Virus record (IMG/VR): IMGVR_UViG_2541047776_000006
DNA: 18,553 bases
Strand: one strand, 5' to 3'
Origin: a virus
Taxonomy: Duplodnaviria; Heunggongvirae; Uroviricota; Caudoviricetes
Shown: one piece after another, positions 2,470-12,381 of the stretch
Layout of the letters: each line of letters opens with the position of its first letter
How positions within the stretch are numbered: the stretch's first letter is position 1
Made by a program: the position numbers and the translations under genes
The notes under the pieces: generated by a model
What the model saw: the letters and a program-made list of their open reading frames with translations, nothing else
Told to the model about the DNA's origin: nothing
The model's database searches: none

Positions 2470-2564
2470 AGTTTGCTCCTGCCATAACGTGAAGAAGCAA
2501 TGACCTGGTGGTCCGTGACTTCCCTACGCTGGCATTATCCAGATCAGGTGATACGGGTATTTCT
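2470..2564 (-). ncRNA. TPP (thi-box) riboswitch of thiM, 3' portion only (P4/P5 arm, 3' strand of P1, expression platform)
   Basis: The minus strand reads ...GAAAUACCCGUAUCACCUGAUCUGGAUAAUGCCAGCGUAGGGAAGUCACGGACCACCAGGUCAUUGCUUCUUCACGUUAUGGCAGGAGCAAACU-AUG. This matches the 3' two-thirds of the E. coli thiM TPP aptamer plus expression platform as I recall it. The 5' part (GACUCGGGGUGCCCUUCU...GGCUGAGA) is absent here and replaced by AT-rich island sequence. Confidence 0.75.
2551..2564. repeat. Left copy of the 14-bp att core / target-site duplication (ATACGGGTATTTCT)
   Basis: Exact 14-bp match to 12336-12349. Flanking bases differ on the island side, as expected for an att junction. Confidence 0.7.
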
Positions 2565-2623
2565 TACTAATTTTTGTTATCAGTTGATAATTAATAATTT
2601 TTTAAGCATACAAGAATTAAAAA

Positions 2624-2697
2624 CCTCAAAAATGACCACACAACTGACCACACATTTCGTTGAAGCCCTACGAACAACGACGAACAATAACAAACAA
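2624..2697. repeat. Sub-terminal imperfect direct repeat, left copy; contains tandem TGACCACACA-AC-TGACCACACA
   Basis: About 75 bp (CCTCAAAAATGACCACACAACTGACCACACATTTCGTTGAAG...ACGAACAACGACGAACA...) closely similar to 12175-12250 in the same orientation, with an identical 25-bp stretch. Candidate integrase arm-type sites. Confidence 0.7.
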
Positions 2698-3263
2698 AAG
2701 GGAAATTTGCTGGCAGTTTTGCTTAACCGTTATCATTTTTCTGCTATCCGCTATGAAGCTGGTGGATGATCACTGATAACTCGTATGGGAATCCCCATAT
2801 CGGCATCATGCCCATGCCATAACAAAAACCCCATATTCGTGGGTTTTCTGTGTTGTGGCTATTCTGCCGTTGCCGTGCTGGTGGATATTTCCGGTATGTG
2901 GCTCACCATATCGGCATCAGGCCCACCAGCGTGAAGCGTTTTTCATTTTTCGCGGGTATAAAAAATCGATGGGGCTGGCAGTCCGGAAGACGTCAGGGTA
3001 CAGAGATTTGACCCGCCCCTCCCTGTGCATGGGCACAATAAGTAACCGAAGGCGGAATTCCGCCCTCGGTGCTCACATATGAGAAACGATATTTCTTACA
3101 CCGATACCCTTTATTTGGGTATCGCGAGTAAGCCCCAAAATCTGGGTGTTACTCTTACTACCCAAACTACGGGTAGTTTCCGTAGTTTCATAGTCGAGTT
3201 GCAGATCTGCAACTCGCCACCAGTTGCTAAGTGCATTTTTGCACTTTCGGTAATATCAACCAG

Positions 3264-3551
3264 TTACCGCCGTAAGTGCTCCGGCTTCCTCCACTGGTAA
3301 GTATTTTTCGCGCTCTCCCTCCGTTGTTGAGAACGGCGACGGTATGCCAGCAACTCAAGAACTCTGGTTCGTATGTTGCGCATATCCACGCCGTTAAGCT
3401 CAATACCGTCACGGCACATTACCTCAGCCACCACACGCGCGTAATTTTCAGCGGTGACTGTATCCGGCTGCTTGGCCTGTTCGTCAGCCAGCTGGCTGAT
3501 TCCACCAGCACGGCGGATTAATCGCAGTATTTCAGATTCGGTCATTATCAT
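3264..3551 (-). CDS. Hypothetical protein; possibly an N-terminal remnant of a terminase large subunit
   Basis: 95-aa ORF whose start overlaps the stop of the upstream Nu1-like gene (ATGA at 3548-3551), as Nu1 and A do in lambda. The N-terminus (SEILRLIRRAGG) loosely resembles the lambda gpA N-terminus (SQVNRLRHFVRAG). Too short for a functional TerL. Confidence 0.35.
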   Translation of the reverse strand: MIMTESEILRLIRRAGGISQLADEQAKQPDTVTAENYARVVAEVMCRDGIELNGVDMRNIRTRVLELLAYRRRSQQRRESAKNTYQWRKPEHLRR

Positions 3552-4033
3552 GCCTGTTTTGCGACCTCATTCACTACGTCATTTTTTACCATCCGGCTGA
3601 TAATCTGATTACACAAATCGTCAATAATTGACTGCACTCTGTTTACTGCCATCGGTTTAAGCCCGGCATCACGTGCCAGAATATTGGGGAGTTTTGCCAG
3701 TTCCTCGCTTACGATTTCCCCCCATATAGCCATCTCTTTTCGCACATCATCGGCGGGTATGAGTTGCGCCGTTTCCTGTTCGAACTTGAGGCGCTCACGT
3801 TCGGACTGATACCAGGCCTTACGGTCATGTGGCTCCATTTCTTCCAGTGATGCCGGAACGGGAAGATCAAGAAAACAGGTCAGAATGTCAGTCACCCGAT
3901 AGAGTTTCAGCTTGTCATGCCCTCCGGCTGGCTGGATGTTTTTCAGCCTTGCCGCCGCAGTCTGACGACATATTCCCGCTATCGCCGCCAGTTGGTTAAT
4001 GTTCAGCATCAGATTTTTCAGTTCTCGATCCAT
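3548..4033 (-). CDS. Phage Nu1-like small terminase subunit (DNA-packaging protein)
   Basis: The ORF track gives 3548..4120. The start is better placed at the internal ATG 4033..4031, which has GGAG 7 nt upstream, giving 161 aa from MDRELKNLMLNINQLAAIAGICRQTAAARL. N-terminal HTH and overall layout resemble lambda Nu1 (compared by eye from memory). Confidence 0.55.
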   Translation of the reverse strand: MDRELKNLMLNINQLAAIAGICRQTAAARLKNIQPAGGHDKLKLYRVTDILTCFLDLPVPASLEEMEPHDRKAWYQSERERLKFEQETAQLIPADDVRKEMAIWGEIVSEELAKLPNILARDAGLKPMAVNRVQSIIDDLCNQIISRMVKNDVVNEVAKQA

Positions 4034-4260
4034 ATCCGCTCCAGAATGTTTTAAACATGCATATTGCGAACAACTTTCAGAAGAGGTTAAAAAATGCGCT
4101 ATATGTTGAGCATAAAACAAGCAAAATTAACATACCAAAAATAAAAATACTTAAAATTCAATATCATATAAAGATGATGATGACGAATGAAAATGCAAAA
4201 ACTAGCCTTTTTCCGCGCCGCTCCCGCCCCGTGGCAGGCCACCCCACCGGGAGGACCCGT

Positions 4261-10931: not shown

Positions 10932-12148
10932 TGTATCCCTCTCAATATCACAATATTTTCATTATATCCCGCAATCATATCAAGACGCTCAACCCATAGA
11001 TTCAGTGCGTCCCGTTTCGCCTGCAAATAGCGTGAATGGTTATAGGTTTTTTGCTGACCTGGCATCTGATGCGCTGTGATGTGCTCCACGATATGCGGAT
11101 CGACACCTAAATCATTCAGCATAGTTGTAAACGTGTGTCGGAAATCATGCAGCGTCCAGTGTTCCTGCTTAAGCCGCTTATGCGCATTTCGTCCATATTG
11201 CGCCACCGTGGTATCTTTTTTCAGTTCGCCGAGTAATAACCCAGTGTGTGCGTTTTGCTCCACCAGCTTCTGAATGAACGGCAAAATGCCATCAGGAATA
11301 GGTCGGAATATTGTTACCTTCGTTTTGCTGTGCTCTTTTGGCACTGTCCACAACATTTCTTTCAGATCCCATTCTTTGATCTCTGAAAGTCTGATCTCTG
11401 CCGTTCTGCACCCGAACACAATTAACAAGCGCATTAACGCACTGTAATAGGGAGCGAACACATCACCATCAATAGCGCGTAGAATTTCTTTTAGTTCGCT
11501 GTTGCTGTGCACTCTCTCGCGGATTTCTGCTCTCTTCCCCACATCAGTAACGATCAAATCGTCCAGGGCGTTGCTAAACGCGTAGCGCCGCCTGCGGCAA
11601 AACTTTAGCGCCTGTTTGCATGTCTGCATGACATGGCCCGCTGCTACTGGTGCTTTTTTTCGTACGCGGTCAAAACATACGATCCACTGCCTTGTATCAC
11701 ACTTATCAAGGGGAATTGCCCCTATATGGCAAATGATGTGCTTATCCATACGCTGCACCAGCTTTATGTAATCTTTGCGGTTATCCTTCGCGTATTCCTC
11801 CAGCCAGTAGTTAATCGCTTCCTTCACCGTAACGGGTTTTAGTGCTTCCTGTACTGTGGCGCACAACTCATACCGAGGGTTTTTACCCTCAGCCAGCCAT
11901 GCCCGGCACTGTGTTCGCTTTTCCCTTGCAGATTTCAGCGACAATTCCGGGTAAGCCCCCAGCTTTAACCGCTCTGCGGCAACCTCACGGCCTCCCGTTC
12001 GGTACCGGAAATACCAGGTTAATTTGCCTCCCTTTGAGTGTTTAATCTCCAGCCCACCCCCGTCGGAGTAAAAACGCTCTTTTTCTGCCTGGACAGCCAC
12101 CAATTTTTTTAACGTTGAATCGCTCAGTTTGTTTAGTGCTTTTCCCAC
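10928..12148 (-). CDS. int: Tyrosine-type site-specific integrase
   Basis: 406 aa with catalytic-domain signatures (GCRTAEIRL, HDFRHTF, C-terminal ...HSRYL). The start is GTG at 12148..12146 with AGAGGA 7 nt upstream. It sits 190 bp from the right att core. Confidence 0.9.
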   Translation of the reverse strand: MGKALNKLSDSTLKKLVAVQAEKERFYSDGGGLEIKHSKGGKLTWYFRYRTGGREVAAERLKLGAYPELSLKSAREKRTQCRAWLAEGKNPRYELCATVQEALKPVTVKEAINYWLEEYAKDNRKDYIKLVQRMDKHIICHIGAIPLDKCDTRQWIVCFDRVRKKAPVAAGHVMQTCKQALKFCRRRRYAFSNALDDLIVTDVGKRAEIRERVHSNSELKEILRAIDGDVFAPYYSALMRLLIVFGCRTAEIRLSEIKEWDLKEMLWTVPKEHSKTKVTIFRPIPDGILPFIQKLVEQNAHTGLLLGELKKDTTVAQYGRNAHKRLKQEHWTLHDFRHTFTTMLNDLGVDPHIVEHITAHQMPGQQKTYNHSRYLQAKRDALNLWVERLDMIAGYNENIVILRGIQ

Positions 12149-12174
12149 TATCAGATCCTCTTTTCAGTCCTCAG

Positions 12175-12250
12175 CCTCAAAAAACTGACCACACAACTGA
12201 CCACACATTTTGTTGAAACTCGGCAAACAACGACGAACAGCAGCAAACAA
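12175..12250. repeat. Sub-terminal imperfect direct repeat, right copy (partner of 2624-2697), immediately upstream of int
   Basis: CCTCAAAAAACTGACCACACAACTGACCACACATTTTGTTGAAA...ACAACGACGAACAG..., roughly four-fifths identical by eye to the left copy. Confidence 0.7.
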
Positions 12251-12335
12251 GAAAGCCAATTAAATTAATTTATATCAAATACATAAACAAACAATCACGA
12301 ACACTCCCGAACTACAAAAAACACTAAATGAGAAA

Positions 12336-12349
12336 ATACGGGTATTTCT
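12336..12349. repeat. Right copy of the 14-bp att core / target-site duplication
   Basis: Exact match to 2551-2564. Confidence 0.7.
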
Positions 12350-12381
12350 CAGCCTTCACAAAGAAGGGCACCCCGAGTCGT
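12336..12381 (-). ncRNA. TPP riboswitch of thiM, 5' portion (P1 5' strand, P2, P3 with thi-box CUGAGA), separated from its 3' portion
   Basis: Minus strand reads CGACUCGGGGUGCCCUUCUUUGUGAAGGCUGAGAAAUACCCGUAU, matching the 5' part of the thiM TPP aptamer with a couple of differences from my recalled K-12 sequence. The native thiM promoter presumably lies in 12382-12470. Confidence 0.7.

Follow-up and report, generated by a model that had tools for sequence, protein, structure and literature searches.

The 18,553 nucleotides analysed here (in the following the window; IMG/VR record IMGVR_UViG_2541047776_000006, assigned to the Caudoviricetes) contain an integrase-bearing island which lies between the Escherichia coli genes thiM and rcnR and separates the two halves of the thiamine pyrophosphate (TPP) riboswitch aptamer of thiM. 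The window is identical to part of NZ_CP031215, the complete chromosome of a sequence type (ST) 80 NDM strain, and the annotation of the Prokaryotic Genome Annotation Pipeline (PGAP) was taken from that record. The host genes are encoded on the minus strand. According to the list of open reading frames (ORFs) and PGAP, the thiMD operon comprises intact ORFs for the hydroxyethylthiazole kinase ThiM (1681-2469) and, as second gene, for the hydroxymethylpyrimidine/hydroxymethylpyrimidine phosphate (HMP/HMP-P) kinase ThiD (884-1684). Directly upstream of thiM (2470-2550, minus strand) cmscan places the expression platform with the Shine-Dalgarno (SD) and anti-SD sequences together with the 3' half of the aptamer, that is the P4/P5 pyrophosphate-sensor arm and the 3' strand of P1; the same sequence is present in the leader of unoccupied sites. 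It is followed by a 14-bp attachment (att) core at 2551-2564, which reads AGAAATACCCGTAT on the thiM strand. A second copy of the core was found by exact match search on the rcnR side (12336-12349). Adjacent to it, alignment to the empty site and cmscan identify the displaced 5' half of the aptamer (12350-12385, minus strand) with the 5' strands of P1 and P2, the P3 hairpin and the CUG of the thi-box. Upstream of this half a sigma-70-like site, TTTACA-17-TACCAT (12411-12439, minus strand), matches the consensus and is a candidate for the native thiMD promoter, which now faces the integrase gene int. The host gene beside the site is rcnR (12477-12749, minus strand; assigned by PGAP).

The window contains exactly two copies of the 14-mer ATACGGGTATTTCT, as the initial annotation of this DNA had stated for the two break points, and they enclose a segment of 9,771 bp (2565-12335). 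In a control with shuffled sequences two or more matches were obtained in only 1 of 200 shuffles, even with two mismatches permitted. On the minus strand the thiM-side junction consists of ...AUUAGUA, the core AGAAAUACCCGUAU and CACCUGAUCUGGAUAAUGCCAGCGUAGGGAAG..., after which the SD sequence and the AUG follow, and the rcnR-side junction consists of ...ACGACUCGGGGUGCCCUUCUUUGUGAAGGCUG, the same core and UUUCUCAUUU.... When the empty site is aligned to the Rfam model, three parts of the aptamer fall within the core: the final three bases of the UGAGA in the thi-box, the ACCC that forms the 3' strand of P2, and the GUAU of the three-way junction. Its share of the thi-box lies in J3-2 and is part of the pyrimidine pocket.

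The covariance model of the TPP riboswitch (RF00059; gathering score 54.3 bits) scores the empty site with 71.1 bits. The thiM-side junction of the window reaches 33.4 bits with non-canonical P1 and P3, and only the 3' part (2504-2564, minus strand) aligns well, so that no aptamer with P1 to P5 and thi-box at or above the gathering score is present upstream of thiM in the window. Occupied junctions of three different elements score between 33 and 37 bits. The aptamer is left cut because the island carries no replacement sequence: its end does not provide a substitute for the 5' half. The split reported in the initial annotation, with the 3' part beside thiM and the 5' part 9.8 kb away, is thus corroborated. 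Further Rfam matches to MIR395, SymR and ST7-OT4 were disregarded as sub-threshold. PGAP shows no riboswitch at the occupied thiM locus, and on the plus strand (2500-2769) it calls a hypothetical protein of 89 amino acids, WP_071780166, which extends across the att core from the thiM leader into the island arm and is probably a spurious product of the junction.

When the outer flanks are joined with a single core, the resulting 800-bp sequence is found without a gap and with 100% identity in strain T309.Ta3, that is, an island-free leader is colinear with the two flanks. Among 5,426 complete E. coli genomes, 4,727 contain this query contiguously, and 5,246 do so for a 100-nt query restricted to the aptamer. 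The rebuilt aptamer and the use of a 14-bp core within it as attB by an integrase-bearing island, both proposed initially, are therefore in agreement with the core, the flanks and the empty site. The thiM-side junction of the island was detected in 76 of the complete genomes and the rcnR-side junction in 72, which corresponds to about 1.4%. The carriers are of varied sources and strains and include an ST131 isolate. The exact 9.77-kb version is present in one complete genome only. An assembly artefact or a chance repeat, which would have undermined the proposal, has no supporting point; the sequence derives from a complete chromosome, identical junctions occur in 72 to 76 independent genomes, the empty site is colinear at 100% and the site has been published (see below), and we regard this explanation as practically impossible.

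The roughly 700 genomes in which the 800-bp query is split were rejected as a set of aptamer insertions, as most of them keep a contiguous aptamer in the 100-nt query. About 620 genomes are split at the locus without the island junction, a group of which only a minority was examined. In NCCP 13907, which has the O157-type locus, the split is due to a segment of about 2 kb upstream of an intact aptamer. Wherever an occupied locus was inspected, both thiM and thiD were found intact. At the seven E. coli loci examined the occupants are either islands of the type described here or a small second element (see below), and never a prophage.

The initial annotation did not know the site as a described attachment site of E. 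coli satellites or prophages. This part does not hold. Fillol-Salom et al. 2018 (ISME J, PMC6092414, Table S1) list the phage-inducible chromosomal island (PICI) EcCI224 of strain Ecol_224 (CP018948.1:1961620-1972242, 10.6 kb) with the att core AGAAATACCCGTAT and the att gene 'frmR-thiM'. The published core is the reverse complement of the 14-mer in the window, and frmR is the name used there for rcnR, so the locus is the same. The island matches CP018948.1 at 1961634-1972228, which is EcCI224, with 95.8% identity over 82% of its length, and the published ends lie exactly 14 bp outside the matched region, which corresponds to the two cores. Both elements share the identical core, the rcnR(frmR)-thiM locus, the int/att module and the gene order; they differ in a truncated protease/capsid gene and some other cargo of the window copy. 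The att site and the element family are thus known since 2018. However, the words riboswitch, TPP and thiamin do not occur in the main text of that study, which handles the frmR-thiM site as intergenic. No paper which places this att site within a riboswitch was found in the searchable literature, a partial collection in which absence is no proof.

The genes of the island are, with the exception of one HEPN gene and two small ORFs, co-oriented with thiM on the minus strand. The gene next to the rcnR-side core, 187 bp away from it, encodes a P4-type tyrosine integrase of 406 amino acids with a GTG start and an N-terminal arm-DNA-binding domain (10928-12148; PF13356, PF00589). It is followed by genes for a DUF6387 protein (10077-10931; domain match), an AlpA-family regulator or excisionase (9749-9973; PF05930 with 4e-15, phrog_2790), a homolog of Icd-like cell-division inhibitors (8825-9088 as PGAP coding sequence, phrog_6196; the mechanical ORF extends to 9739), a DUF4222 protein (8206-8505; domain match) and a D5-type primase/helicase (pri-rep, 6392-8224; D5_N, Pox_D5, DUF5906, and phrog_864 with 2e-190). 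Beside the primase gene a cluster of direct and inverted GGTGAACAG(T) repeats (6181-6393; families D5 and D8-D11, inverted repeats I1 and I8) is probably the replication origin. The only sizeable gene on the plus strand codes for a HEPN-domain accessory protein (5288-6001; PF05168) and is kept in several relatives. PADLOC gave no match for this or the other accessory proteins; the HEPN protein may be an unclassified anti-phage protein or toxin.

Towards thiM follows a pseudogene (4287-4950, according to the PGAP note), the remnant of a fusion of a ClpP-like prohead protease (CLP_protease match at 4485-4778) with a major capsid protein. The remnant is frameshifted, and in comparison to the element of strain AF26 by blastn the capsid half of about 1.24 kb is deleted at 4286/4287. 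The last two genes encode a homolog of DUF1441/Nu1-like small terminases (3548-4120; PF07278 with 2e-35, phrog_141 terminase small subunit with 9e-58; the PGAP coding sequence is shorter, 486 nt) and a conserved small PICI protein, phrog_1561, to which no function is assigned (3264-3551; PHROG match). Downstream of the last island ORF an 11-bp GC-rich hairpin with a weak T tail (3045-3070, minus strand), which is kept in the elements of AF26 and C21, possibly marks the end of the PICI operon.

According to the features given by Fillol-Salom et al. 2018, Gram-negative PICIs are about 8 to 15 kb in size with a terminal int, and carry an AlpA regulator, a unidirectional operon and a pri-rep module with an adjacent repeat-rich origin. 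They lack tail and lysis genes and have a dedicated att site which is not used by prophages. The island conforms in size and position of int, in its AlpA protein and operon, in its primase with the putative origin and in its att site, with the EcCI224 core and without prophages at the seven E. coli loci; no tail or lysis gene was found among the annotated or scanned ORFs. Judged by gene content, set and layout are those of Gram-negative PICIs. The capsid-size and transactivation genes of P4-like satellites (Psu, Delta, Sid) have no Pfam or PHROG match among the island ORFs; what the island has in common with these satellites is limited to the types of integrase, AlpA and primase.

The head module of capsid-forming PICIs (prototype EcCIEDL933), which consists of major capsid protein, protease, portal, adaptor/connector and the large (TerL) and small (TerS) terminase subunits, is represented only by the protease remnant and the TerS-like gene; portal, adaptor, TerL and an intact capsid gene are missing. 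A link to this group is seen in the relative from the O157 strain Al Ain at the same att site, which carries the genes of TerL and a P27-type TerS. Alqurainy et al. (preprint 10.1101/2022.09.08.507074) report that four of the six attB sites of capsid-forming PICIs are also used by classical PICIs. Among the other same-site relatives, the AF26 element has an intact protease-capsid fusion and the C21 element contains capsid, decoration protein and TerS. The int/att module is common to them, while the cargo differs.

From these data, 2565-12335 is very probably a slightly degraded PICI of the EcCI224 family at the published att site of that family, where it splits the thiM aptamer. The frameshift and the missing 1.24 kb, as well as the occurrence of the exact version in a single complete genome, might instead point to a fixed and immobile remnant. 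However, this copy retains intact ORFs for int, alpA and primase as well as an intact arm and core at either end, and other members of the family lack the protease/capsid gene altogether and have different capsid modules, which makes a remnant rather unlikely.

Just inside the two ends of this PICI lie the copies of a 70-nt direct repeat, which are 86% identical. Alignment, repeat and motif searches place one copy (2628-2697) in the arm beside thiM (2565-2790) and the other in the arm upstream of int (12181-12250). The motif TGACCACAC is found in four exact copies in the island, all within the repeat, as tandem pairs 12 bp apart with one pair per arm (2633-2641 and 2645-2653; 12186-12194 and 12198-12206). 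They are candidate arm-type integrase sites. The integrase combines a catalytic with an arm-binding domain and potential arm sites are present at both ends, as expected for an arm-binding tyrosine recombinase that would bind there. The motif is conserved as TGTG(T/A)GGTCA in related elements from Salmonella, and the approximately 230 island nucleotides next to thiM are nearly invariant across relatives with different cargo.

The closest relatives of the integrase form cluster P0001 with 588 members (96% identity). After that the identity drops to 74-67% in the clusters P0002-P0006, which are mostly annotated as Salmonella. All five are located at the syntenic locus (yeh fimbrial genes and rcnB beside int), and they occupy exactly the same aptamer nucleotide, the junction being ...GAAGGCUG followed by AGAAAUACCCGUAU and U(U/A)UCUAA.... 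The search for related integrases suggested initially therefore led to the same position of the thiM aptamer in a second genus. Upstream of the aptamer, Salmonella and E. coli have unrelated host DNA. The next integrase clade, P0007 (67%), resides at a different site beside abgR, which matches the published 'lysR-smrA' site, and the P0027 integrase (59%) is located elsewhere. This integrase clade therefore follows the invariant core of the aptamer in both genera, in the way that integrases specific for tRNA genes follow those genes. A scan of the species representatives of GTDB with an integrase peptide pattern found no relative. The Salmonella element with the P0006 integrase contains in addition four tandem copies of the C4 antisense RNA (L019:12725-13943), which score 68-80 bits and so exceed the gathering score; isrK-like and c4 target (a1b1) matches lie between them. 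The arrangement resembles an array of repeated immunity RNAs of the P1/P7 type within a PICI-like island.

We also found a second element at the same aptamer. In strain 19KM1776 the 3' half of the aptamer behind the PICI is interrupted a second time after GCGUAGGG and leads into the gene of a different tyrosine recombinase of 435 amino acids. This recombinase is not significantly similar to the integrase of the PICI (BLASTP E = 0.49). This element 2 is about 8 kb long and carries a GmrSD/HNH-type gene as type IV restriction cargo. It ends in 19KM1776 (L018:813-2320 and 9741-9837) with a copy of the aptamer, so that thiM keeps a full riboswitch of 71 bits. In strain 789, which is free of the PICI, it lies between the two copies of an 82-bp direct repeat, which agree at 80 of 82 positions (L022:9419-9500 and 17151-17232). 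Each copy carries a riboswitch annotation and spans almost the whole aptamer from its 5' end to GCGUAGGG; the integration point is the 3' edge of the same thiM aptamer. For strain 789, Hochhauser et al. 2023 list a type IV restriction system at 'rcnR-thiM' and give 'None' as type of mobile genetic element; this locus is element 2. Its junction of integrase and aptamer was found in at least 123 of the 5,426 complete E. coli genomes.

Part of the segment between the thiM riboswitch and rcnR in NCCP 13907 (L003:16437-18700) is a remnant of element 2, judging from the 86% identity of its thiM-proximal 1 kb or so to the distal end of that element. Hence the DNA directly upstream of the riboswitch in O157-type strains, and with it presumably the thiMD promoter, seems to stem from the element. 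Outside Escherichia, the Enterobacter sp. RIT418 locus (L021:1171-1913) was the sole match of the junction DNA pattern. It was rejected as a PICI as it shows a junction of the element 2 type: a copy of the TPP aptamer (50 bits) ends with ...GCCAACGUAG at the same aptamer edge, and the ORF behind it is 35% identical to the N-terminal half of the element 2 integrase. The aptamer targeting of this lineage seems therefore to extend beyond Escherichia. In E. coli the thiM aptamer has two forms of the P3 loop, UUUG in the window (12362-12365) and UGCG in the loci L003, L005 and L007. The UUUG form is also present in Salmonella and in the thiM-proximal copy of element 2, and the dimorphism may reflect exchange with element-borne aptamer copies.

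Integrases that target tRNA, tmRNA or ffs genes likewise use a short and highly conserved target which encodes a structured RNA and is common across genera. In contrast to the PICI, they usually carry a segment which restores the target, as element 2 does with its 82-bp repeat. The invariance of the aptamer core across Escherichia and Salmonella probably favoured this target by the same logic.

After integration of the PICI, thiM retains P4/P5, the 3' strand of P1 and the expression platform behind the distal end of the island. The candidate promoter, the 5' strands of P1 and P2, P3 and the CUG remain 9.8 kb away on the rcnR side and are directed into int. The thiMD operon has thus lost the aptamer, namely its pyrimidine-sensor half, and the candidate native promoter. 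TPP binding to the occupied leader would be abolished. In ViennaRNA predictions of chimeric leaders the hairpin which pairs the anti-SD with the GGGAAG segment, the ligand-free ON conformer, persists, and with short 5' ends the SD sequence is mostly unpaired. The leader may therefore be held in a ligand-free, SD-open fold with constitutive, TPP-blind translation, and transcription of thiMD would be island-derived: it would reach the genes from the PICI operon, which has the same orientation, by read-through, or else start at a weak promoter in the arm.

Several points weigh against a PICI at this site with the regulatory effects given above. The predicted fold of the chimeric leader depends on the assumed 5' end and becomes unstable with long 5' ends. 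A sigma-70-like promoter facing thiM was sought in 2400-3600 and none was found, and the hairpin at 3070-3045 could halt read-through. For the Salmonella elements, 10 kb of sequence did not extend as far as the junction on the thiM side. In addition, the loss of the capsid half makes the transfer competence of the window copy doubtful.

It is also conceivable that the insertion is functionally neutral, with thiMD expressed adequately by read-through or a weak promoter in the AT-rich arm, without a cost of the lost TPP feedback, and with the riboswitch as an incidental location of a conserved site. The intact thiM and thiD ORFs in all occupied loci, the presence of the island in about 1.4% of complete genomes from diverse strains and the predicted persistence of the ON-state hairpin are in line with that. 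On the other hand, ThiD is required for de novo thiamine synthesis, so that loss of the promoter should matter in the absence of thiamine, and no promoter-like site facing thiM was detected. Furthermore, the second element at the same aptamer restores it, which suggests that the riboswitch is worth keeping. We therefore consider neutrality a serious candidate which falls only somewhat short of being probable.

As the PICI brings no replacement sequence, its excision would restore the aptamer precisely and rebuild the exact riboswitch. This, together with the candidate host promoter that now faces int, would fit a regulated-gene-integrity switch ('active lysogeny'), in which reversible excision toggles the riboswitch control of thiMD and the displaced promoter drives int. 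For helper-embedded PICIs (Tommasini et al. 2023, PMC10111431) a target that is functional only after excision, again without replacement sequence, has been described. However, the target there is a late gene of the helper prophage with a clear regulatory rationale, whereas here it is a cis-regulatory RNA of the host. The promoter call is a consensus match only, and targeting of a conserved site is simpler and fits as it does for the seven further att sites listed for E. coli PICIs. Such a switch is consequently quite improbable.

What is left as new in comparison to the published element is at the level of annotation: the att core coincides with the heart of the thiM aptamer, which the PICI leaves split and unrepaired, the site is also targeted in Salmonella, and a second integrase lineage uses the same aptamer but repairs it. 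None of these points was found in the searchable literature. Beyond that, we put forward only tentatively, as possible rather than probable, that the thiM aptamer is a true integration hotspot and the first riboswitch recognised as attB. It would be used by at least two unrelated tyrosine-integrase lineages across Escherichia, Salmonella and apparently Enterobacter, of which the PICI cuts the aptamer and uncouples thiMD until excision, while element 2 restores it with an 82-bp replacement and leaves remnants behind.

An att site which has been catalogued as intergenic thus corresponds to the ligand-binding core of a riboswitch that ranks among the best studied. Automated annotation of the carriers drops the riboswitch and calls a probably spurious junction ORF instead. 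The disruptive PICI and the restorative element 2 represent the choice to replace or disrupt known from the targeting of tRNA genes, here on a cis-regulatory RNA. In about 1.4% of the complete E. coli genomes the thiM aptamer is naturally split, and these mutants offer a ready test of the contribution of this riboswitch in wild strains.

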